A DNA stretch of 64,000 bases from Vicinamibacteria bacterium (GTDB lineage Bacteria > Acidobacteriota > Vicinamibacteria > Vicinamibacterales > JAENWD01): the NCBI GenBank assembly GCA_963832135.1, contig CAWHTD010000012.1, positions 76,902 through 140,901 on the forward strand, written 5' to 3'. The translations under genes and the position numbers were made by a program. Under the pieces are notes generated by a model. The model was not told the DNA's origin. It saw only the letters and a list, made by a program, of their open reading frames with translations, and ran no database searches. Every line of letters begins with the position of its first letter. Within the stretch, counting starts at the first letter, position 1. Of the stretch, positions 15,298 through 60,873 are shown in pieces.

Positions 15298-15597
15298 ATA
15301 CCACTCGTGAATCGGTCTGAGCGGCCATCCTCAATAGTCCTTCCTCGGACCAGATATCGAGCCGCGTCCGCAAGATTCTACGCCCCAAGGTTGCGACACC
15401 ATGGACACGACCGCCAGGGTGAGACGCGCACTGTCGCCCGACAATGGCGCCTGCGCCGGTTTGGACGCGCATTCACTCAGAATTTCCAGGGATTTCGAGT
15501 TTCTGGTCGCTAGGCAGAGACAATTTCAATCGCCTCCGCGTCGCGTTTACAATCGGGCTCGCAACAGATCGGTTCTATCTCGGCAAGAGGCGAAAGT

Positions 15598-16293: not shown

Positions 16294-16307
16294 GCGCGGT
16301 GACATCC

Positions 16308-17960: not shown

Positions 17961-17975
17961 CTTACGGGGTTTCAC

Positions 17976-18674
17976 ATGACACGCGCCACAATCGCTGCCG
18001 CTGTTTTCATCCTCCTACACACCACCTCTGCGAGGGCGGGTCAGTACGGGTGCGGATCACAAGCGTCAATACCGCCTGCGGGCACCGACACGCCTTCGGT
18101 GCCTTCGATGGCTCCGCCCTCGCGTGTGGCCAGTGCCTACTCGTTCGGCTGGGGCGGAATTCATGGAAAGGGCGACTCGATTCCCGGGACCCTCGCAGTA
18201 AAGACCGAGAAGCCGTTTCTACTGTCCGGGCAGATCGAGCTTGCGCTTGCGAACAGGGTGGATGCAGTCCTGGGAGGCGGAATCCTTCGAGGCACACCCT
18301 TCACCACCAGTATCGGCGGCGGCAGCGGTCAAGGCGTAAGGTGGACCGCCCCCTTCGTTCTGGCGGGAGTGAGGTATGCCCTTACCGAAGGAAACATAGT
18401 GGATATCGGCCTTACTCCGCTGCTTGGAGCCGCCGCGAGAACCGTCCTGACTCTTGAGCGGGGCCCCGGCTTTGAGCCAGTGCGGTTGACCCCTTCCGGA
18501 GGACTGGGTACCGGATTCGAAACAGATCTCAGGTTCCCGGGCGGCCGTTGCCAGGGGGTGATAAGTGCTCAACTCAGCGTCCGTTATATGGCATGGCGCT
18601 GGCCGCTTGGGAACGGATCGAGGCTCGACGTCAGGCCTCTCACGATCGCGGTGGGCATCGTAATCCGGCACTGA
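17976..18674 (+). CDS. Secreted Gly-rich hypothetical protein (possible small beta-barrel / outer-membrane protein)
   Basis: It has a signal peptide (MTRATIAAAVFILLHTTSARA). Alternating hydrophobic/Gly-rich strands run through to the C-terminus. Confidence 0.5.
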   Translation: MTRATIAAAVFILLHTTSARAGQYGCGSQASIPPAGTDTPSVPSMAPPSRVASAYSFGWGGIHGKGDSIPGTLAVKTEKPFLLSGQIELALANRVDAVLGGGILRGTPFTTSIGGGSGQGVRWTAPFVLAGVRYALTEGNIVDIGLTPLLGAAARTVLTLERGPGFEPVRLTPSGGLGTGFETDLRFPGGRCQGVISAQLSVRYMAWRWPLGNGSRLDVRPLTIAVGIVIRH

Positions 18675-20118: not shown

Positions 20119-20360
20119 TTGATCGTTGATCGGCCCTCTACTGAAACGATTAAGCTCATCCGAGTGGTTTGACAACCTTCCGGGCCCCGCCTAAAATTTT
20201 TGACACCGTGGCGCCCTGAGAGCCGCGCTCGATCACTTCCCCCACGCCGGAGGGTGCCCGCCGGCGTGCCAATCGGAGCTCTTCGGCCCACGCTTCTTTC
20301 GTGATGCTTCTCTGTACGCAGGAACCGTAGAAAGCACGCACTTCTGGAAGGGTGGGACCC

Positions 20361-23300
20361 ATGCTTGCGAACTCTCGCGCGCGCATCTTGTGCGCTCCAT
20401 GCGCGCTGCTCTGCTGGATCTTTGCCGCGATGCCGGCCAGCGCTCAATATCGCGCCAGCCTTCAGGGCACCGTCACTGATCCGCAAGGCGCAGTCGTTCC
20501 CGGGGCTACGGTCACGCTGACGGACAAGGAAACGAACCGGACACTGGAGACCGTGTCGAATGACACAGGCGTTTATGTCTTCAATGCCCTGGCGGCGAGA
20601 GCGTACACGCTGACCGTCGAGCTGGCAGGCTTCAAGAAGAAGGTGCTCGACAACGTGCAGATCATTGCCGAGCAGTCGAACGCGTTGAATGTGGCGCTCG
20701 AGCTCGGGCAAGCCAACGAGACCGTTACCGTCACCAGCACGGCGGCGCTGATCGATACGGCGACGGGCAACATCAGCGGCACCATCACCGCCGCGCATCT
20801 TCAGACTCTGCCGTCGCTCGGACGGGATCCCCTGCAGCTGCTGCAGCTCGCGCCCGGCGCGTTCGGCGATGGCTCGCGGGCGGCCGGGGGCGGCACGCAG
20901 AACCTGCCGGCGACGACGATTGGCGGCAGCGGCAGCGGCATCTTCGCGACGGAGAACGGCGGACAGATCGTCGCCAACGGCGCCCGCACCGGCGAGAACA
21001 ACTACCAGATCGACGGCGTCGGCGTGACCAGCGTGTCCTGGGGCGGAACGACGGTGATCACGCCGAACGAGGATTCGATCAAGGAGATCAAGGTCGTCAC
21101 GAACAACTACGACGCCGAGAACGGCCGGTATCGCGGCGCGCAGGTCCAGATGATCTCGCAGAACGGCACCAACCAGTTGCACGGCAGCGCGTTTTTCAAG
21201 TGGGACAGGCCGGGCCTGAACGCCTTTCAGAAGTACAACGGCTACAGCAAGGCCGTGCAAAAGAACACTCAGGAGCAAAACGATATCGGAGGCACCGTCG
21301 GCGGCCCGATTCTCAAGGACAAACTCTTCGGATTCTTCTCGTACGAAACCCTCCGCCGCCCAGAGTCGCCCAATCCGGTGCAGGGCTGGTACCAGACGCC
21401 GCAATACATGGGCACGGCGGCACCGGCCGGGAGCGCCGCTGAGAAGTTTCTGACGTTCCCAGGCTCATCACCGAGCAGCGGCACCGTGCTCATGGGAGCG
21501 GGCGACGGCCACACGTGCGGTGACATCGGTCTCGTTCAGGGCGTCAACTGCAACTTCATCCCCGGGCAGGGTCTCGACCTCGGACGGCCGCTCACGCTCC
21601 CGGTCGGCACCCGCGATCCGTCGTTCGCCGGGCAGTTCGCGCCAGGCCTCGGCGGCGACGGCAGCGGCAGCCCCGCTAATCTCGACGGCGTCCCGGACCT
21701 GCTCTGGCTCGTCGCCGGCAATCCGCAGAAGAGCACAGCGACTCAGTACAACGTGCGCGTCGACTTCAACGCCACGGCGAAGGACCTGCTCGCGTTCAGC
21801 ATGTATCGCGTCCCGCAGAGCAGCGATTCGTTCAACGGCTCGACGCGCGAGATGAACGCATTTCACCACACGCAGGTCAACGAGGCCGAGACGATTCTGT
21901 GGAACCGCGTCTTCTCAGGTTCTCTCCTGAACGAGGCGCGGGCAAATGCGGCCGGCTGGCGGTGGCGGGATCTGGACAACAACCCCGACGGCCCGTGGGG
22001 ACTGCCGACTGTCTACGTTCAGGACGTGAGCGGAGCCAGCACGATCGGCACCATCCAGCCGAACAACCATCTTGACTTCGGCATCGGCGCGCCGGGAACC
22101 TTCGATCAGTGGACGTTCGCGTTCAAGAACACGCTCACGAAGGTATTGAAAAGCCATACGTTGAAAATGGGCGGCGAAGTGACACGCATGACGTTCGTGG
22201 ACAATGCGCCCTGGTCGGCGCGGCCCTCGTACTACTTCAACAACATGTGGGACTTCCTGAACGATGCGCCCTCAGCCGAGAACGCGTCCTTCGATCCGTT
22301 GACCGGCATGCCGACCGACTTCAGGAAGGACACGCGTCAGACAGTGGCCGGCATCTTCATCCAGGACGATTTCCGTGTCAGGTCGAATCTGACGCTCACG
22401 CTGGGCCTGCGCTGGTCGTACTTCGGATCGATTTCCGAGAACAGCGACGATCTGAGCTCCGTCGTGCTCGGATCGGGCAATGCCGCGCTGACCGGATTGT
22501 CGCTGCGGCTCGGCGGCAAGCTGTACGACGTGAGCAAGACGGACTTCGGACCTCAAGTCGGCTTCGCGTGGAGCCCGTCGCGGTTCAACGAGCGGCTCGT
22601 GATTCGTGGTGGCGCGGGTATCGCGTACAACGGCCTCGATCAAGCCATCTCGTTGAACGGACGCGGCAACGCGCCGTTCCTGTCGACGGCCGGCAATTTG
22701 ACGGGAAGTCAGATCCTCTACGGCGTGAACAGCTTCCCGGCGGACGTCAATTCGTTCTCGGGATACGCCTCGAATCCGGCGACGATCGCCAGCTTCGATC
22801 CGAATACGAATCTGCCGATTCCAGGAGGGGCGAACTTCGCGCAGATTTCGCTGAAGGGGTACCCGGCAGAGTGGCCCACGACCCGCGCCGTGCAGTACTC
22901 CGCCGAAGCCGAATACGATCTCGGCAATCAGTGGGTGGCGTCGCTCGGCTACCAGGGCAGCACGACGCGCCACTTGACTATCCGGCGGAACCTGAATCTC
23001 GTGCTCGCCGCCCAGGGCGTGCCGCTCAACCCGGTGGTCAATGATCTGGAGTTCTACTCGAACGACGGCAATGCGAGCTTCAACGCGCTCCTCGCCGGCA
23101 TCCGCCACCGCTTCAGCAACTCGTTCGAGCTGACCGGCCAGTATCGGCTCAGCCGAAGCCAGGACGATGGGTCGAACAACTTCTGGAACGACGCGTACGT
23201 TTACGACCCTGATGAGTCGTGGGGCCCTTCGGATTACGACGCCACGCACATGTTCAAGCTCTTTGGCGTCTGGTCGCCGACCATCTTCAAGGACCGGGGA

Positions 23301-23873
23301 TGGCTCGAGAAGACGCTCGGCGGCTGGACGATCAGCGGGATCTTCAACGCGCATTCGGGATTCCCCTGGACGCCGGTGTATGCAGGCCTCGGCTGCGGGG
23401 TCATCTATGCCGGGAGCCAAGGCAACTGCGATCTGCGCCCGGGCGCGTACCTTGGCGGCGCGCTCGAGGAGTTCAGCGACGATGCGTTCAAGAGGCCAGG
23501 CGGCAATTTCCCGGGAGGAGGCTCCGCGTTCTTCACGCCGCCTTCGCGCGTGGAGGGACCACCGTTCGCCGACGTCGCCTCTGGCGCGGCGGCGCCGGGA
23601 CCGGTCCCGGGACGGCCCGGCATCGAGCGCAATTCGTTCCGCGGCCCGAGGTATTTCAACATCGACGCCACGCTGAGCAAGGGGTTCGGCCTGCCCACGG
23701 CACCCGTGCTCGGCGAGGCGGCGAAGGTGGAGTTCCGGGCCAACTTCTTCAACCTGTTCAACCAGGTGAACCTGTTCAACGTGCAGAACAACGTTCTCGA
23801 TTCGCACTTCGGCGAGGCGCAGGAAGGACTGGCCGGACGGACAATCGAAATGCAGCTCAGGTTCAGCTTCTAG
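20361..23873 (+). CDS. TonB-dependent outer-membrane receptor with an N-terminal carboxypeptidase-regulatory-like domain
   Basis: The signal peptide ends in ASAQ. Then comes SLQGTVTDPQGAVVPGATVTLTDKETN (the CarboxypepD_reg pattern common in Acidobacteria). It has a long beta-barrel with a terminal aromatic residue (...EMQLRFSF*). The ATG at 20361 is preferred. Confidence 0.85.
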   Translation: MLANSRARILCAPCALLCWIFAAMPASAQYRASLQGTVTDPQGAVVPGATVTLTDKETNRTLETVSNDTGVYVFNALAARAYTLTVELAGFKKKVLDNVQIIAEQSNALNVALELGQANETVTVTSTAALIDTATGNISGTITAAHLQTLPSLGRDPLQLLQLAPGAFGDGSRAAGGGTQNLPATTIGGSGSGIFATENGGQIVANGARTGENNYQIDGVGVTSVSWGGTTVITPNEDSIKEIKVVTNNYDAENGRYRGAQVQMISQNGTNQLHGSAFFKWDRPGLNAFQKYNGYSKAVQKNTQEQNDIGGTVGGPILKDKLFGFFSYETLRRPESPNPVQGWYQTPQYMGTAAPAGSAAEKFLTFPGSSPSSGTVLMGAGDGHTCGDIGLVQGVNCNFIPGQGLDLGRPLTLPVGTRDPSFAGQFAPGLGGDGSGSPANLDGVPDLLWLVAGNPQKSTATQYNVRVDFNATAKDLLAFSMYRVPQSSDSFNGSTREMNAFHHTQVNEAETILWNRVFSGSLLNEARANAAGWRWRDLDNNPDGPWGLPTVYVQDVSGASTIGTIQPNNHLDFGIGAPGTFDQWTFAFKNTLTKVLKSHTLKMGGEVTRMTFVDNAPWSARPSYYFNNMWDFLNDAPSAENASFDPLTGMPTDFRKDTRQTVAGIFIQDDFRVRSNLTLTLGLRWSYFGSISENSDDLSSVVLGSGNAALTGLSLRLGGKLYDVSKTDFGPQVGFAWSPSRFNERLVIRGGAGIAYNGLDQAISLNGRGNAPFLSTAGNLTGSQILYGVNSFPADVNSFSGYASNPATIASFDPNTNLPIPGGANFAQISLKGYPAEWPTTRAVQYSAEAEYDLGNQWVASLGYQGSTTRHLTIRRNLNLVLAAQGVPLNPVVNDLEFYSNDGNASFNALLAGIRHRFSNSFELTGQYRLSRSQDDGSNNFWNDAYVYDPDESWGPSDYDATHMFKLFGVWSPTIFKDRGWLEKTLGGWTISGIFNAHSGFPWTPVYAGLGCGVIYAGSQGNCDLRPGAYLGGALEEFSDDAFKRPGGNFPGGGSAFFTPPSRVEGPPFADVASGAAAPGPVPGRPGIERNSFRGPRYFNIDATLSKGFGLPTAPVLGEAAKVEFRANFFNLFNQVNLFNVQNNVLDSHFGEAQEGLAGRTIEMQLRFSF

Positions 23874-25216: not shown

Positions 25217-26470
25217 TCAACCGCGTCTGACTCCGAGCAGCGGCTCCACGACGTTCCACAACCGCCGCCCAAAGACTTCAGTCGAGAAATGCTGCTGCAC
25301 GTGGTCCCGGCCGGCGCTGCCGAACCGCTGTGCGATGTCCGCGTGTGTCACCAGCGTCGACAAGGCGTCGGCGAAGGCGTGCGGGTCCGGCGGGCAGAGC
25401 CAGCCAGTGTGGCCATGGAGCACCGTCTCTGTCGGACCGCCGTGGTTCGTGGCGACCACCGGACGACCGGCGGCCATCGCCTCGAGCGGCACCAGCCCGA
25501 AATGCTCGGCGCGCGGCGTGTAGATCACCGCGCGGCAGCCTGCCAGCAGCCGGTCACGCTCCTCGGAGGACGGCGAGAGCACAAAGGCCACTTGCTCGGT
25601 GACACCGAGCTGTCCCGCCAACGCGCGCAGCGTCTGCAGCACGAGCCTTTGCTCGGGGAGCGTCGCGTCGTACCGTCCCGCCAAAACAAGCCTCACGCGG
25701 TCGAACACTGACAGCGGGACACGAGTGCGCAGGAGCGCCAGCGCCTCGACGGCCAATTCGAGGCCTTTTCGCGGATCGAACCGGCTCACCGAGAGCAGCA
25801 CGATCTCTGTCGGGTCCGTCGGGACTGGGGTGATCAGGCGCCGATCCGAGACGAACACGCCCGGATGCACGACGGTGAGCGCCGAGTCCCGAAGCGCTGG
25901 AAACGCGTCCCGCGCCTTCGCGGCGGTAAAGGCGCTGTTGACCACGATGCGGTCGGCCGCCAGCAGTCCTTCGGCCTCGAGCCGATCGATCGGCCGGCGG
26001 TACATCCGGTAGGCCAGGGACGCACGGCTCGCTTCAGGTGTCAGCAGACGATCGGGGTAGTGGCAAAAGAACAGGACCGGCCGTCGGGTGCGGCGTTTGA
26101 CAAGCGCGACGAGGTGGGAGGCGACGTCGCACACGACCAGATCGTGCATGACCGGGCCTCGTGCCAGGGCCCTGGCAGCCGTCGCGGTGCGGCCAATGGC
26201 CAGTGGCGTCTGGAGCCGGCCGCCGATGTGTGCCGGCAGCCACGTCGGGACCTCCTCCACCACAATCGCACCGCTGGCAACCTCCGGAAATTGGGGTGCC
26301 TCGAGCGTGCCGGGGATGAAGAAGCGTACGTGGCACCCGCGCCGCTGCAGCTCGGTCGCTGCATCGAGCACCAGGCGTTCGCTTCCACCGATTCCCAGGC
26401 GTGGGCGAAGAAACGCAACCGTTGGTGACCGACCGGCAATGCCCGTTGCCGAATGCACAGGTATCGCCAT
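25217..26470 (-). CDS. GT4 glycosyltransferase, ALG2-like (alpha-1,3/1,6-mannosyltransferase-like)
   Basis: The N-terminus VAFLRPRLGIGGSERLVLDAATELQRRGCHV mirrors the ALG2 N-terminal signature. The C-terminal GT-B region includes EHFGLVPLEAMAAGRPVVA (the EX7E motif). The start may be 26470 or 26512. Confidence 0.75.
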   Translation of the reverse strand: MAIPVHSATGIAGRSPTVAFLRPRLGIGGSERLVLDAATELQRRGCHVRFFIPGTLEAPQFPEVASGAIVVEEVPTWLPAHIGGRLQTPLAIGRTATAARALARGPVMHDLVVCDVASHLVALVKRRTRRPVLFFCHYPDRLLTPEASRASLAYRMYRRPIDRLEAEGLLAADRIVVNSAFTAAKARDAFPALRDSALTVVHPGVFVSDRRLITPVPTDPTEIVLLSVSRFDPRKGLELAVEALALLRTRVPLSVFDRVRLVLAGRYDATLPEQRLVLQTLRALAGQLGVTEQVAFVLSPSSEERDRLLAGCRAVIYTPRAEHFGLVPLEAMAAGRPVVATNHGGPTETVLHGHTGWLCPPDPHAFADALSTLVTHADIAQRFGSAGRDHVQQHFSTEVFGRRLWNVVEPLLGVRRG

Positions 26471-28306
26471 CGGGAGCCGAATGATATAACCAGCGCGGTG
26501 CATGGCGCTCACACCACGCTCGTAGAGAGCCGTCAGGCGTTCGGGCTGCTGTCTCTCGCGACACGCTGGCGCTGGGTGGGGCTGCTGCCGTTCGCCTTGG
26601 CGGGTGCCGCGGCGGAAGCGGTCGGCGCGCTCGCCGTCTTCGCCCTCTTACGCGTGATTGTCGATCCCGCCGCCGCCGAGCGAATTCCGGTTGGCATTGT
26701 GCGCCGCTATGTGTCTACGGGCGGCAGCTCACCACTCATCTCCTTCGCGGCGCTCGTCGCCGTGATTTACCTTGCGCGAAACGCCTTGCTCACCGCGAGC
26801 GCGTGGGCGCGCGCACGGATGGTCCATGGCTCGGTCGCTGAGCTGTCGCGCCGCAGCTACACCGCGTACCTCCGCGCCTCCTTCGCCCTCTCGGGGGCGC
26901 GAAATTCAGCCGACATGATCCAGCGCGTGCAACGAGCCTCGCAGGTCGTGCCCACGCTGGTATTGGCGTCCGTCCTCAATTTGATCGCGGAAGTACTCGT
27001 GGTGGCTGGCCTCGTGCTGCTGCTCGCCTTCACCGCGCCGCTGGTCACGTTGGTAGCCGTTTCCGGCACCGCCCTGTTGCTGCTCGTGCCCGGATTCGTT
27101 ACGTCGCCCATCTTCAACCGCTGGGGCCGTGAAGAACGTCGGCTGGAGATCGACCTCCTCCGTCAGGTGAACGAAGGACTCGGTGGTCTCAAGGAGGTCA
27201 AACTCAACGAGCGGGAAAGGTATTTCGAAGCACGCTTTGCGTCACTCCGCCACCAGCTCTCGGCAATCCAGAGGAGGCGGGATGTTCTCAACGAAGGATT
27301 GCGCGTCGGCGTCGAGACGGCCTTCGCGCTGATTCTGGTGCTGGTAATCATCGTGGTCACGCGAAGCGGCGGACAGGGCAGCGACGTTGTGTCGCTGCTC
27401 GGCCTGTACGCGTATGCCGGCTTTCGTCTGATCCCTTCGATCAATCGCATCACGCTCAACCTCACCAGCCTGCGGCACGGGCTGCCCTTCGGCTCCGATC
27501 TCGTCCACGAGCTCGCGGCGCTGGAGCGCGCGACTCCGGATCGCCGCGAGGGCGATGAGACGGTGACCTTCTCGAGCGCTATCGTGTTCAACCACGTGAG
27601 CTATGCCTATGCGCAGGGCAGCCGGCCGGCGATCACCGACGTGGAGCTGACAATCGAGCGAGGCGAGTCGGTCGGAATCATAGGACCGACCGGCGCCGGC
27701 AAGAGCACCCTGCTTGACCTTCTGCTGGGGCTCATCGCGCCCACGAGCGGCCGCGTCCTCGTCGACGATCATGACATCAGCCAGGCGTCGCGCGCCTGGC
27801 AGCGACAGATCGGGTATGTGAGCCAGACGCCCTACCTGCTGGACGACAGCCTGCGACGCAACGTGGCGTTCGGTCTGCCCGGCGACACAGTGGACGACGA
27901 CCGTGTGCGGATGGCGGTCTCCGCCGCCCAGCTCGACGAGGTCGTCGAGCTCCTGCCGCAAGGTCTCGATACGACAGTCGGGGATCGGGGCGCCCGCCTG
28001 TCGGGGGGGCAACGACAGCGCGTCGCGATCGCGCGTGCGCTTTACCGCGATCCGGCCGTGCTCGTCCTGGACGAAGCGACCGCGGCTCTCGATCTGGAGA
28101 CCGAGCGCGAGGTTACTCGTGCGATCGAGTCGCTCCACGGCACACGCACGGTCATCGTCGTTGCGCATCGACTGTCAACCGTTCGCCACTGCGATCGCAT
28201 CATCGTGCTTCGTGAGGGACGAATCGCCGCGAGCGGCTCGTACGCCGACCTGCTGGCGAAGGACGAGGGGTTCCAGCGGCTGGTCGACGCCAACAATGCG
28301 GGGTGA
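26453..28306 (+). CDS. Fused TMD-NBD ABC exporter (MsbA/PglK-like; candidate lipid-linked oligosaccharide flippase)
   Basis: It has six predicted TM helices. The NBD carries Walker A (GPTGAGKST), the signature LSGGQRQR and Walker B (VLVLDEAT). The start is uncertain (ATG 26453 or GTG 26498). Confidence 0.85.
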   Translation: MHRYRHREPNDITSAVHGAHTTLVESRQAFGLLSLATRWRWVGLLPFALAGAAAEAVGALAVFALLRVIVDPAAAERIPVGIVRRYVSTGGSSPLISFAALVAVIYLARNALLTASAWARARMVHGSVAELSRRSYTAYLRASFALSGARNSADMIQRVQRASQVVPTLVLASVLNLIAEVLVVAGLVLLLAFTAPLVTLVAVSGTALLLLVPGFVTSPIFNRWGREERRLEIDLLRQVNEGLGGLKEVKLNERERYFEARFASLRHQLSAIQRRRDVLNEGLRVGVETAFALILVLVIIVVTRSGGQGSDVVSLLGLYAYAGFRLIPSINRITLNLTSLRHGLPFGSDLVHELAALERATPDRREGDETVTFSSAIVFNHVSYAYAQGSRPAITDVELTIERGESVGIIGPTGAGKSTLLDLLLGLIAPTSGRVLVDDHDISQASRAWQRQIGYVSQTPYLLDDSLRRNVAFGLPGDTVDDDRVRMAVSAAQLDEVVELLPQGLDTTVGDRGARLSGGQRQRVAIARALYRDPAVLVLDEATAALDLETEREVTRAIESLHGTRTVIVVAHRLSTVRHCDRIIVLREGRIAASGSYADLLAKDEGFQRLVDANNAG

Positions 28307-28309
28307 CGA

Positions 28310-29524
28310 TCAGGAGTTCGCGGCAACCTGCTCGACGATCTCCCGGAAGGTCGAGACGAACCGCTCGACCGAAAACAGCTGCGCGCGCGTCTTGAGCATC
28401 TCACGGAGAGTGTGCTGCTCGGCCGGGTCGCTCATGATTCTGGTGATCGCCGCGACAGCGCCGTCAATGGTCTCGTAGACGAGCCTGGGATCGCTCCCGA
28501 CGATCTCGACCTGCCCGCCCCCACTCGGCACGAACACGATGCAGCCGGCCGACGCCATCTCGGCCGGCGCGATGCCGAAGTGCTCCGCTGACATACCGTG
28601 GATCCCATAACGGAAGCTCGGGATCAGCTCGAGCAGCTCTGCTCGGGAAAGGTTTTCGTTGAGGCTGAGCCACCCACCTGCGGCACGCACGCGATCCCTC
28701 AGGTGCCGGTAATAGGTGGTCGGCCCTCGTGTACCCACCAGGCAAAGGGTGGCGTGCGGAACCGAACGCCGAACGCCCGCCACGATATCGATCACGCGAT
28801 CGAGCTCCTTCTCCGGGGCGAAGCGCCCAATGCAGATGAAGCCCTCACGTCGCTGCGACCACGGCACGTCTGGAAATCGAGTCGCCACGGGCGGATACAG
28901 TGTGCGACTGCGAATACCGTAGAGCCGCTGCATCACACGGCCGGTCCAGTCAGAGTTCGTCAGCGTGACGTTTCGCTTCATCCGGTCCACCGAGAAGCCG
29001 TCGAGCCGATCGGCCAGCCAGTAGTACAAAGGCAGCAGCAGCGGGATAGCGTGGTACCAGCGAAGGTCAGTGGCGGGTCGGGGTCTCAGATGCGTCGGAT
29101 AATGGATGTACTGAACGCCGGCGCGTCCGAGGTCAGCCTCATTGCTGGCGCTAACAACCACATCGTACCGCCCGGCAACGGTTACCGCGGCGCGCCACAA
29201 GAGCGCGTGTTTGACGAGATTGACGCGACCCGGCAGGACCTTCGCGGCCGCCTTCATCCAGGCGGGCAAAGGCTCGACGATGACATCCTCTCGCCGCAGC
29301 GAGGTGCCGTAGAACCGATTCAGATCCCGCAGGTCGAGCTTCGTCCACGAAAGAACAGCCAGATCGTGCCGTCCGCGGATCGCGTCCAGCATCCACGCAG
29401 CCACGCCATTGCCGCCGCCTGGCGGCTGAAACGACGGCTGGATCACGAGCACGCGGCGCCGAGTGCTCGGAGCGGCCCCACCTGATGAACTGTGATGAAT
29501 AGCTGATAGCCTACACGAGTGCAC
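28310..29524 (-). CDS. GT4 glycosyltransferase, ALG11-like
   Basis: QPSFQPPGGGNGVAAWML resembles the ALG11 N-terminal GGGGE region. LTNSDWT resembles the ALG11 'NSSWT' motif, and EHFGIAPAEMASAGCIVFV is an EX7E motif. The start is uncertain (GTG 29524 or GTG 29452). Confidence 0.65.
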   Translation of the reverse strand: MHSCRLSAIHHSSSGGAAPSTRRRVLVIQPSFQPPGGGNGVAAWMLDAIRGRHDLAVLSWTKLDLRDLNRFYGTSLRREDVIVEPLPAWMKAAAKVLPGRVNLVKHALLWRAAVTVAGRYDVVVSASNEADLGRAGVQYIHYPTHLRPRPATDLRWYHAIPLLLPLYYWLADRLDGFSVDRMKRNVTLTNSDWTGRVMQRLYGIRSRTLYPPVATRFPDVPWSQRREGFICIGRFAPEKELDRVIDIVAGVRRSVPHATLCLVGTRGPTTYYRHLRDRVRAAGGWLSLNENLSRAELLELIPSFRYGIHGMSAEHFGIAPAEMASAGCIVFVPSGGGQVEIVGSDPRLVYETIDGAVAAITRIMSDPAEQHTLREMLKTRAQLFSVERFVSTFREIVEQVAANS

Positions 29525-30343
29525 GACTCGCGTCAGGGACTCGAGTTCGCCAACGCGCCGATGCTGCGGTTACTCAACCTCGGCCGCCACGTCGTTCCGG
29601 CGGCATGGCGCGCTCGCCTTCGGAACGTGCTTTTTCCGATTCGGGGCCTGACCTTCACACGACCATCCGGCGTCCGCCTTCGGATTGCGAACGACACCGA
29701 TTGGACGGTCTACACAGAAGTGTTCCGGAAAGGCGAGTACGATACGGCCATCAGTCGTGCGGTCACATCGGCGCGCGCCGGCCGGCTCTGCATCGTCGAT
29801 CTGGGAGCAAACGTCGGATTCTTCACGCTGCGTGTGATCGATACGATCCGAACCCTCGAGAGTCGATCGCTCGAAGTCGAAATCATCGCCGTCGAGGGGA
29901 GCCCTAGACGGGTCGAGGCATTCCGATCGCGCGTGATCGACGAGAACGGACTGAGGGATCAGGTTCGCCTGATCGGCGGGCTCGTTGGCAATCGTTCCGG
30001 GTCCGCGGCGCTCTATGAAGGCCGGACCCACGGCGACAGCAGTCTGTTCAAGCGCGCATCGTCGTCAGCCGTCGTCGAGGAGCTCGCGTTCGTCGACCTG
30101 TCGCCGCTCGTCGCATCCGAGCCGGCCATTCATCTGCTCAAGTGCGATATCGAGGGCGCCGAGCTGCAGTTCATCCGGACGTATCGCGACCTGCTGCTGA
30201 AGACAGAGGTTGCGGTGTTCGAGCTTCACGACGAGTTGTGCGACACGGCGGCCTGCCGTCGGCTCCTTCGGGACTATGGCTTCGGTCACGAGACCGTAGT
30301 CCGCCGCATGGGACCGTACGAAATCTACTGCGTCTGGCGCTGA
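29519..30343 (+). CDS. FkbM-family SAM-dependent methyltransferase
   Basis: It has VDLGANVGFFTL (SAM-binding loop) and HLLKCDIEGAELQF, as in FkbM-type methyltransferases. The alternative start is the ATG at 29561. Confidence 0.7.
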   Translation: MHDSRQGLEFANAPMLRLLNLGRHVVPAAWRARLRNVLFPIRGLTFTRPSGVRLRIANDTDWTVYTEVFRKGEYDTAISRAVTSARAGRLCIVDLGANVGFFTLRVIDTIRTLESRSLEVEIIAVEGSPRRVEAFRSRVIDENGLRDQVRLIGGLVGNRSGSAALYEGRTHGDSSLFKRASSSAVVEELAFVDLSPLVASEPAIHLLKCDIEGAELQFIRTYRDLLLKTEVAVFELHDELCDTAACRRLLRDYGFGHETVVRRMGPYEIYCVWR

Positions 30344-32625
30344 CCCTCCGGCCTAAGGGACCGCTCGTAAATCTGCACGAGCGCGGGGCCGAATCGGCTT
30401 CCGCTTGCCGGCAGCTGCCCGAGTGATCGAAATACCTGGCGGTATTCAGGCAGTGCTTCCAGCGGGACGCAGCTGGTTAACGGATCGGGGCTCGCGATTC
30501 GCCAATGTCCGGCCGGCCGGCTGGCGATGAACCGGGTCGCCTCCTCATAACTTGCAAAAGCCCTCTCGCCTGCAAGTCGCTTCACGCGGCGCCCGCCTCG
30601 TTCGTGATCGGTCCAGGAGACCGCTGTCACCGATGATGGCGTCATGGCGCGTCCGCCAAACGCATACAAGCGCACGGCCATGGTCCGGTAATACTTTGGA
30701 AAACAGTACAGGCGCGCACGCGACGCCATGCCGTCATCGGGTAATTCGACTTGCTGACAATAGTCCGATGGCGTCCTTCCGGCTGCCAGCGCGATTGCCG
30801 CGAAGAATCCGTCCTGGTCGTTGCGGCGGCCAACGAGCCGCGCCTGCAGCCGGGCATCGACGATGATGTAGCGCGAGCCGAGCACGTCGAGAACCGTTGA
30901 GGCCTCTGTCGGGCTCTCCGCGAGCAGGAACGACGCAACCTTTTTCGCCTGAGTCTGCCTCGGGTTCGTGTTGGGAACCCTGCGAGCGACACGGATGATG
31001 AAGTAGCCGTAATCCCACCACGCCAGAACGCCGTAAGCGCTGGCAGGCCGATTGGCGCCGGGCCCGATGTCGAAATCGGTTCGATAGTAGGCGTCTCGGT
31101 CGTTGAAGGGCTCCGGAGTGTTCGCATTCAGCCACTGCAGCGCGTCGGACCAATCGTCCGACAAGCCGCTTTCCTTGTGCCGTTCGCTCTGGATACGTCC
31201 GGCCAGCGGCATGGTGACGAGCAGGGCAAGGACCAGACCAAGTGCCCACGGAGCAACGGCGCTACCGCGGCGTCGCGCCGCGGTGGTCGATATCGTCGGA
31301 TCCAAGGCGTCTTGTGATGGACGTCCGTAGAGCTCGACACGCCGGATCAACGCGTCGCACGCGAACCCGGCGAGCAGCGCCACATTTACTCCGAGGTAGT
31401 ACGTGAAACGCACCTGCGCAAACGTGGCGGCGATGAAGACACCTGTCCAGACCGCCAGCAGCGCGCCTCGCGCCGACGTGACTCGTGGCCGTGCCAGAAA
31501 CCAGGCGCCGCCAACGACCGCCAGGAACAGGCACGGGCCGAATTCGTTCCAGAGCGGCAGCGGATATCGCGCGTCGGACTGCAGGAGCGGCAAGGCTTCA
31601 CTCACATAGGCCACGCGCCCCCAGGGCAACAGCCGTCGCATCTCGAGGCCAAATCCGCTCCACCCACCGCGGGCGGTGTAGGCAAGCGAGAGAACCATTG
31701 TCGCGCCGGCCGCCATCCCTGCCAGATAGACCGCGCGATTGTGCCTGTAGGAGGCCGTCGCGTTGCCCCACGCCTGAACGGCGCACAGCACCAGCAAGCC
31801 GAGCACCAGTGACGCGACGTGGTACACGAAGTAAGGCCTCGCGCCAACCCATGGAACAACCACGCCCGCCGCCACGCCGAGTGCGGGCGTGACGAGGAGC
31901 GGCAGGTTCTCGACCGGTCGGCCGCGGAGCCGTTGAAAGATGAGGCTCGTGCCGGCCGCCGCCACCACGACGAGCACGAAGAGGCTGCCGCCGCTCCAGG
32001 TCAGAAGGTAGCAGCCAAGCGTCACGCCGCCGATGCCAGACAGCCACAGCCTCCTGCCGAACGGCCGCGACGGGTCCAGCGCCAGCACGATCCACATCAG
32101 TGCCGTTGTGCTCAAGAGCGTCTCTGCGCAGTGGTGATCGGTGAACCCGAGCTGCGATCGAATCAGCGTCTGACTGGGAACCACCGCGACGAGGAACGCC
32201 GCCCACCTCCCGGCCCGGCGAGAGCAGAGCTCGCGGCCGAGCACATAGACAGGAGCGCACAGCAGCGCGCCCATGACGGCGGGGACATACGCCCCGACTA
32301 CATCAACGAGGCGAGACGATGGCGAGCCAAGGCCGAGGAGCAGCGCAACGCCGGCGATCACCCAGTCGAAGAAGGGACCGGCATCGACTGGTTCCCCTCC
32401 GGGATGCACGAGATACGGATCGAACCAGAGCCGCTGCGGGAAGTGACGGAGCGTCGCATCCACCAGACGCATGTGATACCACGCGTCGTTCTCGACAAAC
32501 CTGATAGTGTCGTGTCCGAACACGGCGTCGTAGGTGATGCCAATCCTCACGGCCAGAGCGACACCGAACAACGCGAGCAACCACGCGGCCGTTTGGAGAG
32601 GGACGCTGAACCCGGGGCGCCTCAT
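30325..32625 (-). CDS. Oligosaccharyltransferase catalytic subunit, STT3/AglB/PglB family
   Basis: It has the WWDYG motif (nt 31006-31020), an N-terminal loop acidic motif (ENDAWYHMR), a GFTDHH..E motif (D-x-H type as in archaeal AglB) and about 13 TM helices before a soluble C-terminal domain (SRYIIVD...). The ATG at 32625 overlaps the upstream stop (ATGA). Confidence 0.85.
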   Translation of the reverse strand: MRRPGFSVPLQTAAWLLALFGVALAVRIGITYDAVFGHDTIRFVENDAWYHMRLVDATLRHFPQRLWFDPYLVHPGGEPVDAGPFFDWVIAGVALLLGLGSPSSRLVDVVGAYVPAVMGALLCAPVYVLGRELCSRRAGRWAAFLVAVVPSQTLIRSQLGFTDHHCAETLLSTTALMWIVLALDPSRPFGRRLWLSGIGGVTLGCYLLTWSGGSLFVLVVVAAAGTSLIFQRLRGRPVENLPLLVTPALGVAAGVVVPWVGARPYFVYHVASLVLGLLVLCAVQAWGNATASYRHNRAVYLAGMAAGATMVLSLAYTARGGWSGFGLEMRRLLPWGRVAYVSEALPLLQSDARYPLPLWNEFGPCLFLAVVGGAWFLARPRVTSARGALLAVWTGVFIAATFAQVRFTYYLGVNVALLAGFACDALIRRVELYGRPSQDALDPTISTTAARRRGSAVAPWALGLVLALLVTMPLAGRIQSERHKESGLSDDWSDALQWLNANTPEPFNDRDAYYRTDFDIGPGANRPASAYGVLAWWDYGYFIIRVARRVPNTNPRQTQAKKVASFLLAESPTEASTVLDVLGSRYIIVDARLQARLVGRRNDQDGFFAAIALAAGRTPSDYCQQVELPDDGMASRARLYCFPKYYRTMAVRLYAFGGRAMTPSSVTAVSWTDHERGGRRVKRLAGERAFASYEEATRFIASRPAGHWRIASPDPLTSCVPLEALPEYRQVFRSLGQLPASGSRFGPALVQIYERSLRPEGQRQTQ
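31006..31020 (-). other. WWDYG catalytic signature codons of the oligosaccharyltransferase
   Basis: The reverse complement of 31006-31020 is TGG TGG GAT TAC GGC, which encodes W-W-D-Y-G. Confidence 0.9.
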
Positions 32626-33623
32626 GGCACCTCCATCGTCAGCAACGCGATGGCCGAGCACAGCACCATCAAGGCATAGAGAGCGAGCACCGCCGCGCGG
32701 TGCGAGAAGCCGAGCCGGAGCAGACGGTGATGAATATGCGCGCCATCTGCCGAGAAGATTCGCTCGACGGCTCCGGCGAGGCTCGCCAGCCCACGCTGCG
32801 GTGCGGGGTCACGTACCAACAGGCGGCGCGCAATTGCGACGACGGTGTCGGCAAGCGGCAGCGCGAAAATCAGGAGCGGCATCCCGACTGCCAGCGTCGT
32901 CGCGCCTTTCTGCTGTCCGGTGATGGCAGTGGCCGCCAGCAGGAAGCCGGCGAGGAGACTGCCCGAATCACCGAGAAAGATTCTGGCCGGGTGAAAGTTG
33001 TACGCGAGAAATCCGAGCACGGCACCGACAAGCGACACCAGCAGCATGGCACTCGGCTGCTGATCGCGGGCGATCAACACCGTGGCACAGGTCGTGGCCG
33101 CGATCGCAACCAGGCCGCCAGCGAGCCCATCGAGGCCGTCCATCAGGTTGAAAGCGTTGGTGACGACGAGGACCCACAGCATGGCGGCCGGGATTGCAAG
33201 CCATCCGAGGTCGTGCGTCGTGCCAAAAATCGTGACGCGCGTGATCGTCAGGCCGGCCGCGATGACGATGGCCGCGGCCGCACTTTCGACGAACAGCTTC
33301 AGCCGCGGCCCGACGGGATGCAGGTCGTCCCAGGCGCCGATCGCGAAGACGAGGGTGGCGCCGGCGATGATCGGCAACAGGCTCCGGAGATTGGGTTTCG
33401 GATCCGTGTCAGCGTAAGTCTCGATGATCACGGCGACGACGAGCGAGATGGCAAGGCCGAACGCGATCGCCACGCCGCCCAGCCTCGGAATGGGGGTCGT
33501 ATGCACTTTGCGGGCGCCAGGAGGGTCGAGGAGACCCAGACGATGGCAGGTGCGAACAATCGGAGGCGTAATCGCCAGCGAACTCACCAGCGCGGTCACG
33601 AACAGCGTTAGATAGACGACCAT
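32622..33623 (-). CDS. Polyprenyl-phosphate HexNAc-1-phosphate transferase (MraY/WecA family; ALG7-equivalent initiating enzyme)
   Basis: It has RKVHTTPIPRLGGVAI, NAFNLMDGLDGLAGG (the family DG.DGLA motif) and about 10-11 TM helices. The ATG at 33623 overlaps the upstream gene by 16 nt. Confidence 0.85.
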   Translation of the reverse strand: MVVYLTLFVTALVSSLAITPPIVRTCHRLGLLDPPGARKVHTTPIPRLGGVAIAFGLAISLVVAVIIETYADTDPKPNLRSLLPIIAGATLVFAIGAWDDLHPVGPRLKLFVESAAAAIVIAAGLTITRVTIFGTTHDLGWLAIPAAMLWVLVVTNAFNLMDGLDGLAGGLVAIAATTCATVLIARDQQPSAMLLVSLVGAVLGFLAYNFHPARIFLGDSGSLLAGFLLAATAITGQQKGATTLAVGMPLLIFALPLADTVVAIARRLLVRDPAPQRGLASLAGAVERIFSADGAHIHHRLLRLGFSHRAAVLALYALMVLCSAIALLTMEVP

Positions 33624-34714
33624 CGCTCCTGCATCACTCGCTCGCAGTCCCGGACGATCTGCGCCGCGGCCTCGGGGGTGGCGAATGCGCGCGCGGCGGA
33701 AGACATGGCAGTCCACTTCAAGGGCTGTCGCAGCACGTCGACGATGCGGGTCGCGATCGCGTCGGCATCCCAATCGCGCTCGCGGACCCACAACGCGGCC
33801 CCCCGAGACGCGAACGCCGCGGCATTCTCTGCCTGATGATCGCCTGCCGCGTCGGCCAGGGGGACCAGCAGCGCGGGCAGACCGGCGAGCGCCAGTTCGG
33901 ACAGCGTGCCTGCTCCGGCACGCGCGACAATCATATCGGCCCAGTCATATTGTTCGGACAGGTCGTCGAGGAAGGGAAGCACCTGCGCCGTGACGCCAAG
34001 TCGCAGGTACTGCTGTTCCAGAGCGCCCGGATCGAGCGAGGTCACCTGATGCCGTACTTCGGCGGGAATACCCACGGCCAGGAGCCGGGCGACGAGCGAC
34101 GGAACCGTCGCGGCCAGAAACGCGTCACCACGCGATCCCCCCGTGATGAACAGTCGTACGGCGCGGTCGGACGCAGGCGGCGTTCGCTCGCGCATCAGCC
34201 GTGCGCGTGACGCGAGGAGTGGCAGGCCTGTCTTCAGCGTCCGTCCGGCCGGAAACCGCCTCGCGGTTTCGTCGAACATGACGTAGGCGCGCTCGGCGAT
34301 TCGACTGAGCAACCCATTCGCCAGTCCGGGACTGGCGTTTGGCTCCACGATCGCGGTCGGCAGTCCAAGGCTGCGCGCCGCCAGCACGACGCCACCTGAC
34401 GCCGAACCCCCCGTGCCGATGACGAGCCTGATGCCGCGCTGCCGCAGCACGCGCCGCGCCAGCGTGAATGTGGGGATCACACGCATTGCGCCCGCCAGCC
34501 GTCCGATCGGACCTACGCGCACCAGCTGTGTCGACGGGACGAAGAACAGCGACTGGCCGGCGTCGGGAAGCAGGCGGCGCGCCCAGTCCGATTCGCCCGC
34601 CAGAAAGGTCACCTCGACACCCTCACAGGCACGGCGGTACGCGTCGGCGATGGCCATCGCGGGAAGCACGTGACCGGCCGTGTCGCCGACGACCATCGCA
34701 ATCCGCCGTATCAT
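33608..34714 (-). CDS. MurG-fold GT28 glycosyltransferase (ALG13/ALG14-equivalent second HexNAc transferase candidate)
   Basis: The N-terminal G-loop (VVGDTAGHVLPAMAIA) is the MurG GGTGGH-type. The C-terminal half has ARAGAGTLSELALAGLPALLVPL...DHQAENA, as in MurG. Confidence 0.8.
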   Translation of the reverse strand: MIRRIAMVVGDTAGHVLPAMAIADAYRRACEGVEVTFLAGESDWARRLLPDAGQSLFFVPSTQLVRVGPIGRLAGAMRVIPTFTLARRVLRQRGIRLVIGTGGSASGGVVLAARSLGLPTAIVEPNASPGLANGLLSRIAERAYVMFDETARRFPAGRTLKTGLPLLASRARLMRERTPPASDRAVRLFITGGSRGDAFLAATVPSLVARLLAVGIPAEVRHQVTSLDPGALEQQYLRLGVTAQVLPFLDDLSEQYDWADMIVARAGAGTLSELALAGLPALLVPLADAAGDHQAENAAAFASRGAALWVRERDWDADAIATRIVDVLRQPLKWTAMSSAARAFATPEAAAQIVRDCERVMQERWSSI

Positions 34715-34813: not shown

Positions 34814-36061
34814 GTGAGAGCCGTCGTCGTCGTGCTCGGTGACCTCGGACGCAGCCCCCGCATGCTGTTCCACGCCCGCTCGCTGGCAGCAGAAGGCCTC
34901 GAGGTCGACCTGATTGGCACGGCGGCGTCCGACTTGCCGGCATTCATTGCCGGCGACCGGCGCATTGTCGTTCACACGATCGCAGACCACGCGCCCCACG
35001 CTGGTGTGTCTTCAGCGAGGCTCCGGTATCTCCTGAGGACGGTGTTGCGAGGGGCGCGACTCCTGATGGCGCTCGCGAGCCTGCTCTGTTGGCGCCTGAG
35101 CCGTCCCGACGTGATCCTCGTTCAGAACCCGCCCGGCGCGCCCACGATGGCGGTGGCCTGGCTGGCTGCGAGGTTGCGGTCGGCTCGGCTCGTTGTGGAC
35201 TGGCACAACCTGACCAGTGCGATGCTCGCCGTGCGGCACGGTCCAGGCCATCCGCTCGTGAAAGTGATTGCGCAGTACGAGGCGCTCTTCGGCAGGGCGG
35301 CGGATGTGAACCTGTTCGTGTCGTCGCACATGCAGGAGATGCTTGGCCGCCGATTCCGGGTGCGGGGGACAGTGTTCCGCGATCGACCGGCTGACACGTT
35401 TGCTCCGCTTGCGGCCGACGAGCGCGACCGCGCTCGCACCCGACTGTTTGCCATGTTCGCCCGGCCGACGATGCGTGAAATCGCGCTGCTCGTCAGTCCC
35501 ACGAGTTGGACGGCCGATGAACACCTCGATCTGTTCCTCGAGGCGTTGACGCAATATGACGCGAGAACGCGAGCCGACCACGGCCCGAACCGGTTGCCTT
35601 TTCTCGCCGTGCTGATTACCGGGCAGGGACCGCTGAAACGTGCCTTCGAGGAGCGAGCTCGGGACAACCCGCTCGAGTACGTACACATCCAGACCGGCTG
35701 GCTCGAGCCGGACGATTACGCCCGAGCGATCGCGGCCGCCGATCTGGGGATCTGCTGCCACGTGTCCGCGTCAGGAGTCGACCTCCCGATGAAAATCGTC
35801 GACATGTTCGGGGCGGGTGTTCCCGTGTGTGCCTACGACTACGGACCGTGTCTCCAGGAACTCGTAACCCCCGGCGTCAACGGTGTGCTCTTCACGACCG
35901 CTGAGAACTGCTGCGACCGTCTCGAGAACCTGTTACGTGGGCTGCCGGCCTCGAATCCGGTTCTCGAACGACTGCGGAAAGGCGCTGCCGAATCGGCGCC
36001 CAGGACGTGGGGCGAAGGCTGGATCGCCGAGGCTCGCTCGGCGCTAATCCCGAGCCGCTGA
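34814..36061 (+). CDS. ALG1-like beta-1,4-mannosyltransferase (GT33-like)
   Basis: The N-terminus VVVLGDLGRSPRMLFHARSLAAEGLEVDLIG closely mirrors the ALG1 signature (VLGD-G-SPRM-YHA-SLA). The C-terminal part (LPMKIVDMFGAGVPVCA) is also ALG1-like. It starts with GTG. Confidence 0.8.
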   Translation: MRAVVVVLGDLGRSPRMLFHARSLAAEGLEVDLIGTAASDLPAFIAGDRRIVVHTIADHAPHAGVSSARLRYLLRTVLRGARLLMALASLLCWRLSRPDVILVQNPPGAPTMAVAWLAARLRSARLVVDWHNLTSAMLAVRHGPGHPLVKVIAQYEALFGRAADVNLFVSSHMQEMLGRRFRVRGTVFRDRPADTFAPLAADERDRARTRLFAMFARPTMREIALLVSPTSWTADEHLDLFLEALTQYDARTRADHGPNRLPFLAVLITGQGPLKRAFEERARDNPLEYVHIQTGWLEPDDYARAIAAADLGICCHVSASGVDLPMKIVDMFGAGVPVCAYDYGPCLQELVTPGVNGVLFTTAENCCDRLENLLRGLPASNPVLERLRKGAAESAPRTWGEGWIAEARSALIPSR

Positions 36062-52879: not shown

Positions 52880-52886
52880 GGTCGGG

Positions 52887-57788: not shown

Positions 57789-57800
57789 GTCGCGTCCCGC

Positions 57801-60866: not shown

Positions 60867-60873
60867 ACTCTGT

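Follow-up and report, generated by a model that had tools for sequence, protein, structure and literature searches.

A predicted AglB-type oligosaccharyltransferase and its WecA-like and MurG-like partner genes in a Vicinamibacteria genome

A 64,000-nucleotide stretch of a Vicinamibacteria genome (phylum Acidobacteriota; GenBank assembly GCA_963832135.1, contig CAWHTD010000012.1, positions 76,902 to 140,901), hereafter called the window, carries on its minus strand a gene for an oligosaccharyltransferase (OST) of the AglB type. Around it lie genes for a WecA-like N-acetylhexosamine (HexNAc)-1-phosphate transferase, a MurG paralogue, glycosyltransferases of family 4 (GT4), an FkbM-family methyltransferase and an ATP-binding cassette (ABC) half-transporter (Table 1). 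The locus probably encodes a single-subunit OST, acquired by bacteria long ago from a euryarchaeal-type AglB, that would perform the final step of a locus-encoded periplasmic N-glycosylation. It had first been singled out by a sequence-only reading, made without database searches, whose claims are taken up below where the results bear on them.

Table 1. Coordinates of the OST gene, its motifs and the neighbouring genes (positions within the window).
Feature	Position	Strand	Remarks
AglB-type OST gene	30325..32625	-	766 residues from ATG; reading frame reaches GTG at 32661; supported by Pfam, NCBIfam, PDB and fold
Shine-Dalgarno GGAGG (32630-32634) and ATGA start/stop overlap (32622-32625)	32622..32634	-	couples the WecA-like gene to the OST gene
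First DXD motif, E45-N46-D47, external loop 1	32485..32493	-	D47 pairs with AfAglB ligand Asp47 of Gly-Asn-Asp47
Second DXD motif, D163-H164-H165, external loop 2	32131..32139	-	pairs with AfAglB ligands Asp161-His-His163
TIXE equivalent, Y340-V-S-E343, external loop 5	31597..31608	-	Glu invariant; Thr replaced by Tyr/Phe across the Vicinamibacteria clade
R406	31408..31410	-	pairs with AfAglB Arg426 near the lipid-phosphate site
WWDYG, residues 536-540	31006..31020	-	part of the Ser/Thr(+2) pocket; pairs with AfAglB 550-554
Variant DK-motif region, D590..I611	30793..30858	-	beta-strand, low-confidence inserted loop, helix; F607 at 30805-30807
WecA/MraY-family polyprenyl-phosphate HexNAc-1-phosphate transferase	32622..33626	-	start uncertain; M33626 gives 334 residues as in orthologues, reading frame extends to 33791
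MurG paralogue (GT28)	33608..34714	-	donor-site motifs kept, acceptor-site motifs altered
GT4 glycosyltransferase GT4_c	34814..36061	+	divergent; syntenic in 6 of 7 Vicinamibacteria loci
FkbM-family methyltransferase	29519..30343	+	convergent with the OST gene; accessory, otherwise only in the closest relative (L001)
GT4 glycosyltransferase GT4_b	28310..29524	-	accessory
ABC half-transporter, MsbA/PglK type	26453..28306	+	candidate flippase for lipid-linked oligosaccharide
GT4 glycosyltransferase GT4_a	25217..26512	-	Pfam GT4

The open reading frame (ORF) of the OST runs uninterrupted over 30325..32661, corresponding to 778 residues when counted from a GTG. It is nearly certain that translation begins with the ATG at 32625, which gives 766 residues, because this codon overlaps the stop of the upstream WecA-like gene in an ATGA, a GGAGG lies 4 nt upstream of it, and an identical database entry (P0001) has 766 residues. 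The 4-nt overlap recurs in the locus of Luteitalea sp. TBR-22 (L081), and the closest relative (L001) shows a 1-nt overlap of the matches. These signals directly support that the OST gene is translationally coupled to the WecA-like gene. Scans of the whole window for tRNA and Rfam families gave no matches.

Family membership and fold also have direct support, through matches well outside the range of chance. Pfam recognized the STT3 N-terminal domain (E 1.1e-21) and the AglB core-like domain (2e-21), PMT_2 staying below threshold. The sole NCBIfam match was TIGR04154, 'oligosaccharyl transferase, archaeosortase A system-associated' (479.4 bits, E 2.4e-143), in which residues 15-755 aligned with model positions 3-740 of 831 and the curated whole-protein cut-off of 450 was exceeded. 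The top PDB sequence match was AglB-L of Archaeoglobus fulgidus (AfAglB; 3WAJ/5GMY; E 7.5e-53, OST residues 22-594), human STT3A was only marginal (E 0.6), and PglB chains were absent at E<=10. An AlphaFold2 model built from a 59-sequence alignment was confident (mean predicted local distance difference test score 91.2, predicted template modelling score 0.91) and showed the multi-pass N-terminal transmembrane domain and C-terminal periplasmic globular domain of a glycosyltransferase of the GT-C fold. Compared with the PDB by Foldseek, this model matched AfAglB first (7E9S/3WAK; E ~1e-33; best template modelling (TM) score 0.73-0.74, AfAglB hits spanning 0.69-0.74), then yeast and human STT3 (0.56-0.66) and C. 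lari PglB (0.53-0.55). The 19 highest-ranked matches were all OST catalytic subunits, followed by DPY19, ArnT, AftA and PMTs.

By HMM (hidden Markov model) score, the window protein is thus assigned to the euryarchaeal AglB subfamily of the STT3/AglB/PglB superfamily and not to PglB. Two other placements were ruled out: an ArnT/PMT-like GT-C enzyme, as ArnT reached a TM score of at most 0.39, and the PglB branch, for which there was no PDB sequence match, a fold rank under AglB and STT3, and a layout at position 607 that is not MxxI. The sequence-only reading had taken a WWDYG motif as the hallmark of an STT3/AglB/PglB catalytic subunit and had described the protein as archaeal in flavour. The first point is upheld by Pfam, TIGR04154, AfAglB-L and the fold, and the second by the euryarchaeal model scored above its cut-off. 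The comparison of a predicted model by Foldseek, which it had proposed, put AfAglB ahead of STT3 and PglB, and the order of affinity (AglB > STT3 > PglB) leaves no clustering with the ArnT/PMT-like enzymes that it had named as the opposing case.

The second DXD motif is acidic in PglB (D-x-D) and reads D-x-E in STT3. Motif definitions and ligand assignments for the present comparison were those of the AfAglB ternary complex, in which Asp47, Asp161 and His163 bind the metal and Arg426 lies near the lipid-phosphate site (PMC8342417); residues were paired through a HMMER alignment. The OST has a counterpart for each of these residues (Table 1), and its E343 pairs with Glu360 of the TIXE motif of AfAglB. 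D47, D163, H165, E343 and R406, as well as E168, which comes shortly after the D163-H164-H165 motif, are unchanged across 59 relatives. The same six positions reach 99% conservation or more among the 143 nearest representatives at 50% identity, drawn from a library of 1.84 billion proteins, with D47 kept in 141 of the 143.

The loop motifs proposed earlier hold up on this alignment. ENDAWYHMR (residues 45-53), read as the acidic motif of the first loop, contains the family-invariant D47 opposite AfAglB Asp47, and GFTDHHCAE (residues 160-168), read as a D-x-H type, places D163 and H165 opposite D161 and H163, the ligand pattern of the structure (PMC8342417). The acidic residues consequently fall on the catalytic site and not beside it. 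With this directly observed conservation, the OST is apparently active and catalytically competent.

The WecA-like protein matched Pfam Glycos_transf_4 (9e-41). It scored 108 bits against the WecA model (cut-off 326), remained under the MraY cut-off too, and lay at a similar distance from MraY and from human DPAGT1 among PDB matches. The catalytic motif NxxNxxDGLDGL and the motif H[IL]HH are conserved in 7/7 orthologues; as a lead only, HIHH is presumably the UDP-N-acetylglucosamine (UDP-GlcNAc)-recognition motif of E. coli WecA.

The MurG-like protein clearly descends from MurG (E 9e-46 against the P. aeruginosa enzyme) and scored 209.8 bits against the murG equivalog TIGR01133, under the cut-off of 250.25. 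Its C-terminal donor site for UDP-GlcNAc is intact in comparison with three solved MurGs (RAGAGT..GDHQxxNA), and the acceptor motifs are altered from GGTGGH to GDTAGH, from GGY to GGS and from HEQN to VEPN, HEQN being found in 0 of the 119 nearest homologues. HEQN and the G-loops form the proposed lipid-acceptor site of MurG (PMC8993221). Judged from score, motifs and context, the protein is a paralogue of MurG, and the simplest reading is that it puts GlcNAc on a different acceptor linked to undecaprenyl pyrophosphate (Und-PP). Because its partner is of the WecA type, this acceptor would be Und-PP-GlcNAc and the product a chitobiose-like core.

The linkage of these genes is conserved, again as a direct observation. 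The order MurG-like/WecA-like/OST and its tight spacing are kept in 7 Vicinamibacteria loci, including Luteitalea, at 45-69% OST identity. GT4_c is present in 6 of the 7 and was undetected in the remaining one (L005), 2 of the 7 also have the ABC exporter and GT4_a, and the exporter adjoins the OST gene in L001 and L003. This exporter scored 301 bits for MsbA and 267 bits for PglK in NCBIfam, both under the cut-off, and matched the PglK structure 5c73 (E 6e-70); PDB sequence searches with GT4_b and GT4_c were without matches. Orthologues of the MurG-like gene and/or GT4_c were also located near STT3-family genes in three more distant bacterial loci (L082, L086 and L088). L088 (JACQEL010000556.1, 1-9909), from a metagenome-assembled genome (MAG) labelled 'Deltaproteobacteria', contains orthologues of GT4_a, GT4_c and the MurG paralogue at 40-45% identity, and its MurG-paralogue/GT4 orthologues lie 4 kb from a more divergent STT3-family gene of 908 residues; the MurG-paralogue/GT4 pair is thus not confined to the company of a single OST lineage.

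We infer from this gene content that the locus is a full N-glycosylation-type locus. The ALG-like glycosyltransferases seen in the sequence-only reading are apt as to the predicted roles, which correspond to Alg7, Alg13/14 and Alg2/11, and misplaced as to ancestry, the genes being bacterial WecA/MraY, MurG and GT4 types and not ALG orthologues.

Several further features were seen around these loci. A related metagenome locus (L085) has GT4, DegT, GFO/IDH, DUF1616 and Wzx-type flippase genes around its OST gene. A large protein with CarboxypepD_reg and outer-membrane protein (OMP) beta-barrel domains lies about 3-7 kb from the cassette in the window (20352-23873, plus strand), in Luteitalea (L081, 951-4307) and in L005 (5825-6778), which may be chance, such proteins being abundant in Acidobacteriota, or may mark a candidate acceptor. 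An intermediate-clade soil contig (L086) encodes, directly after the OST gene, a 1693-residue protein (3374-8455) that combines copper-binding and Flg_new_2 domains and might be secreted and serve as an acceptor. The OST gene of Luteitalea sp. TBR-22 has immediately downstream, in convergent orientation, a Methyltransf_5 gene (RsmH/MraW-type; L081, 12266-13150), and no other dcw genes occur within the 10 kb shown.

One rival reading accepts an active OST and holds that the products of the WecA-like, MurG-like and GT4 genes assemble some other glycan of the envelope, such as an O-antigen, a capsule-like polymer or a polymer resembling enterobacterial common antigen, the OST donor coming from elsewhere. 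The linkage would then merely reflect a broad clustering of genes for envelope glycans. WecA-type initiators, GT4 enzymes and ABC exporters are indeed generic polysaccharide genes, the accessory genes differ among Vicinamibacteria, and the WecA/MurG-like cassette was not found at the OST loci of the Dehalococcoidia relatives. However, this reading must contend with the ATGA overlap and Shine-Dalgarno site that join the WecA-like stop to the OST start, with a gene order and spacing kept in seven genomes down to 45% OST identity, and with the recurrence of the MurG-like gene and/or GT4_c in the three distant loci. Moreover, no Wzy polymerase, chain-length regulator or ligase was present among the Pfam-scanned ORFs between 13 kb and 43 kb. 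An unrelated glycan is consequently considered improbable.

The acceptor pocket of the OST appears to depart from that of characterised enzymes. In the AlphaFold2 model, WWDYG comes soon after the final transmembrane helix (449-482) and belongs to the first part of the periplasmic domain (strand 532-534, helix 537-547), so it is neither fortuitous nor away from the transmembrane/periplasmic boundary, the case that the earlier reading had set against itself. That reading had located the motif exactly in nucleotides; its residue positions, 548-552, take the GTG as the first codon. In some relatives, W536 is replaced by L/C/F and D538 by N/E/S. The TIXE motif reads [Y/F]VxE throughout the Vicinamibacteria clade, where position 340 is Thr in 0 of 36 sequences (Y15, F13; also V/N), compared with 83/86 in Dehalococcoidia, 7/9 in the intermediate clade and 8/8 in archaeal proteins. 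These counts were taken from the clade alignment (36/86/9/8 sequences), as the TIXE column is misaligned by gaps in the 143-representative alignment.

The DK region is altered likewise. A strand (584-590) is followed by a 14-residue loop of low confidence and then by D605-G-F607-F-A-A-I611, in which F607 pairs with the signature Lys of the archaeal and Dehalococcoidia pattern G-K-F-x-A-(M/I/P/L) and would be equivalent in space to Lys618 of AfAglB. The Vicinamibacteria clade reads G-(F/L/I/V/Y)-F-x-x-(I/V/M) at this spot, and Lys at position 607 occurs in 0/36 Vicinamibacteria, 75/86 Dehalococcoidia, 6/9 intermediate-clade and 4/8 archaeal sequences. The earlier remark that no clean DxxK is visible near SRYIIVD (584-590) was accurate, as the OST has no DxxK and its layout, judged by alignment, is that of the variant DK motif with an insertion. 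This variant, E<>KXXX(M/I/P) with a kinked-helix insertion, has been described for AglBs from Archaeoglobi, Halobacteria and Methanomicrobia (PMC3703281), and it is to these classes that the window protein is most similar. It is predicted that the clade of the window protein has reshaped two sequon-contacting elements in a way compatible with activity and with an altered acceptor preference. Compatibility is argued for position 607 because a hydrophobic second signature residue, the 'Ile-type pocket', is normal in all PglBs and some AglBs (PMC3703281).

The same substitutions have a second rival explanation, namely that a GT-C enzyme derived from an OST no longer glycosylates N-X-S/T and either uses another acceptor (a different residue, a specific protein, a lipid or a glycan) or mainly hydrolyses lipid-linked oligosaccharide to free oligosaccharide. 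It draws on the loss of both the TIXE Thr and the DK Lys from all 36 Vicinamibacteria sequences, on the variable WWD of the relatives and on the hydrolysis of lipid-linked oligosaccharide by OSTs when no acceptor is present (PMC8342417). The copy in the window, however, retains a perfect WWDYG, and the metal ligands are invariant together with D47 and E343, the proposed activators of the Asn amide. In addition, the hydrophobic second signature position is the normal state just described for PglBs, and TIXE binds the sequon by main-chain hydrogen bonds (PMC8342417). Loss of sequon glycosylation therefore appears unlikely.

The host is bacterial beyond the OST locus. The window also encodes a CarboxypepD_reg outer-membrane beta-barrel, the MsbA-like ABC exporter, a PknB-like kinase, a giant GH94 protein and glutamine synthetase, and the proportion of G and C across the OST locus is flat (0.64-0.66). 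OST orthologues with 45-69% identity occur in MAGs of Vicinamibacteria/Vicinamibacterales and in Luteitalea sp. TBR-22, whose 6.47-Mb genome is complete. A scan that took a single genome for each GTDB species yielded 273 loci with a gene for a relative; among the best 80 of these, 6 were from Acidobacteriota, mostly labelled Vicinamibacteria, and nearly all others from Dehalococcoidia or other Chloroflexota at 30-36% identity. At E<=1e-3 the family comprises 2,809 representatives, of which 772 remain at E<=1e-30. The nearest archaeal proteins found are only 26-30% identical to the OST and have an additional AglB_L1 domain; Methanothrix and Halocatena are among their sources, and one lies on a contig that also carries a TFB gene.

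In a bootstrapped neighbour-joining tree (712 columns, built without a PglB or STT3 outgroup), the Vicinamibacteria clade received 100% support, its union with the intermediate clade 88%, Dehalococcoidia 68% and the all-bacterial clade merely 48%. Taken with the distribution, this indicates an old archaeal-type AglB lineage resident in bacteria and not a recent transfer. Lombard (2016) mentioned no more than 'a few bacterial homologues within the euryarchaeal clade' and had inferred, in general terms, that the gene passed from archaea to bacteria at least twice (PMC4973528). The view of the sequence-only reading that such an OST is unusual in a bacterium agrees with the literature, and does not fit the databases, which hold a large bacterial clade with 273 loci. 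Among the loci from Dehalococcoidia/Chloroflexota MAGs (L007-L080), those of Dehalococcoidia often include several OST paralogues per genome, for example in MAG W281 (L021, L025 and L030). An archaeal-style envelope N-glycosylation would suit cultured Dehalococcoidia, in which peptidoglycan is lacking and the surface layer consists of protein.

The match to an NCBIfam model made for Euryarchaeota could suggest an archaeal contaminant, a very recent transfer or a decaying relic, but contamination and recent transfer are effectively refuted by the clearly bacterial genes and flat composition of the contig, the far higher identity to Vicinamibacteria, including a closed genome, than to the archaeal proteins found, and the fully supported Vicinamibacteria clade, and the intact ORF with every catalytic residue conserved leaves a relic hardly credible.

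For the preferred reading of a locus-encoded N-glycosylation by an anciently acquired AglB-type OST, the following scheme is proposed, in which enzymatic activity, lipid carrier, sugar identities, flippase role and acceptor proteins are predictions. The WecA-like enzyme would transfer HexNAc-1-phosphate, probably GlcNAc-1-phosphate, onto undecaprenyl phosphate at the cytoplasmic face, and the co-transcribed MurG paralogue would add the second GlcNAc to yield a chitobiose-like Und-PP-GlcNAc2 core, as Alg13/14 and Agl24 do. The GT4 enzymes would then lengthen the chain, which the FkbM methyltransferase may methylate, and the MsbA/PglK-like ABC exporter would flip the lipid-linked oligosaccharide. 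Finally, the OST, with metal bound by D47, D163 and H165 and with the aid of E343 and R406, would transfer the glycan en bloc to Asn of exported proteins, recognizing its acceptor by WWDYG and the reshaped pocket in which [Y/F]VxE stands for TIXE and Phe607 for the Lys of the DK motif.

A number of points weigh against this scheme. No biochemical or glycoproteomic data on this bacterial OST clade were found in the literature. The donor of AfAglB is a monophosphate (PMC8342417), in tension with the pyrophosphate donor predicted from a WecA-type initiator. Where AfAglB has His81, close to the phosphate, the bacterial proteins have Asp/Asn, which may reflect a switch to a pyrophosphate donor. The TIXE Thr and DK Lys, parts of the sequon site in characterised OSTs, are both substituted in the Vicinamibacteria clade, and departures from WWDYG (WWNYG, CWEYG, WWSSG, LWDYG) occur in about half of the Vicinamibacteria relatives, so that acceptor specificity, and even acceptor class, could differ among them. 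The ABC exporter fits MsbA slightly better than PglK, at scores below either cut-off, and neither the exporter nor GT4_a, GT4_b and the FkbM gene is kept in all relatives. Furthermore, the homologue search with the MurG-like protein listed only the paralogue family and no separate housekeeping murG.

To our knowledge, OST-dependent bacterial N-glycosylation has been studied experimentally only for the PglB systems of Campylobacterota and some Desulfobacterota. The locus suggests an as yet unstudied system of protein N-glycosylation in a lineage beyond the small set of bacterial groups known to have one. The sequence family itself is not unknown, since the OST is already auto-annotated as 'oligosaccharyl transferase, archaeosortase A system-associated' in Vicinamibacterales MAGs. 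A paper that combines the bacterial AglB lineage, the cassette of WecA and a MurG paralogue, the loss of the peripheral domain and the remodelled pocket was not found, in a search that left subscription papers mostly uncovered and whose outcome is no proof of absence.

These data suggest that a second, AglB-derived OST lineage is widespread in soil Vicinamibacteria and in subsurface or marine Dehalococcoidia, two groups of environmental importance, and that the Vicinamibacteria enzyme is wired to a pathway of WecA and a MurG paralogue for a HexNAc2 core as in eukaryotes and Crenarchaeota. A bolder proposal, which we regard as tentative and rather doubtful as a whole, is a third, independent kind of bacterial general N-glycosylation, in which an archaeally derived AglB whose sequon pocket has been reshaped would target periplasmic and outer-membrane proteins, a WecA-type enzyme and a recruited MurG paralogue would build a chitobiose reducing end on undecaprenyl pyrophosphate, and the Dehalococcoidia enzymes would glycosylate envelope proteins as archaea do. 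If the predicted pathway is real, it would be a natural experiment on the adaptation of an OST to a different envelope and lipid carrier, and the recruitment of MurG for an Alg13/14-type reaction would bear on the debated origins of the eukaryotic pathway. It would also offer candidate enzymes for bacterial glycoengineering of GlcNAc2-based glycans. The system is directly testable because the complete genome of an isolate, Luteitalea sp. TBR-22 (AP024452.2), carries the cassette, at about 5.731-5.737 Mb.

Elsewhere in the window, four large co-directional ORFs of 579, 1633, 1021 and 1026 residues (51182-63954, minus strand) may form an uncharacterised multi-protein system; the first three are without any Pfam match and the last is a DUF6603 protein (E 2e-124). 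A protein of 2836 residues (3977-12487, plus strand) has GH94 supersandwich and catalytic domains and a glucoamylase-like domain, an architecture that resembles cyclic beta-1,2-glucan synthase. Four consecutive ORFs of 223-298 residues (15444-18674, plus strand) have no Pfam match.

Among known systems, A. fulgidus AglB-L (AF_0380; 3WAJ/3WAK/5GMY/7E9S) and the TIGR04154 subfamily are closest to the OST in sequence and fold. The metal site of Asp in external loop 1 and Asp-His-His in external loop 2 is shared, the Glu of external loop 5, the Arg and WWDYG all align, and the kinked-helix insertion is as in the variant DK motif E<>KXXX(M/I/P) (PMC3703281). In contrast, the host is a diderm bacterium, the identity in Foldseek is just 21-22%, and the OST is about 100 residues shorter, without the AglB_L1 domain (PF18079) of archaeal relatives. 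It has Tyr for the TIXE Thr and Phe for the signature Lys, and its cassette predicts an undecaprenyl pyrophosphate donor instead of dolichol monophosphate. The archaeosortase/PGF-CTERM context of TIGR04154 was not seen either, as no archaeosortase or exosortase was present among the Pfam-scanned ORFs of at least 200 residues across the 64-kb window.

The Campylobacter PglB/pgl system similarly combines in one locus a single-subunit periplasmic OST, an initiating phosphoglycosyltransferase, GT4 enzymes and an ABC flippase, of which PglK is a solved homologue of the window exporter (E 6e-70), and the hydrophobic second signature position of the Ser/Thr pocket corresponds to the MI motif of PglB (PMC3703281). 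PglB nevertheless belongs to another branch of the superfamily, with a TM score of 0.53-0.55 against 0.73 for AglB. Its external loop 2 motif is the acidic D-x-D and not DHH. The predicted initiator of the window is of the polytopic WecA type and not of the PglC type, a MurG paralogue is present and bacillosamine genes were not seen, and the phylum is Acidobacteriota in place of Campylobacterota or Desulfobacterota.

The AglB-like proteins of Dehalococcoidia, which make up most of the best 80 of the 273 loci, are the nearest large sister group (30-36% identity). They are of equal length class, likewise have no PF18079 and possess identical catalytic residues, whereas they differ in the canonical T[IV]xE (83/86), the signature Lys (75/86), the frequent presence of several paralogues per genome and the absence of a WecA/MurG-like cassette. 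A different kind of likeness links the locus to the chitobiose pathway of eukaryotes and Crenarchaeota, where Alg7 and Alg13/14 or Agl24 act before STT3/AglB. Both are predicted to open with a HexNAc-1-phosphate transferase of the GPT family and to end with a GT-C OST. GT-B enzymes of the MurG/Alg13-14/Agl24 kind transfer GlcNAc from UDP-GlcNAc onto a lipid-PP-HexNAc acceptor (PMC8993221). The second enzyme of the window derives from bacterial MurG (E 9e-46) and not from Alg13/14 or Agl24, and the sugars are those of a prediction; the first two steps of the two pathways are nonetheless predicted to be equal.

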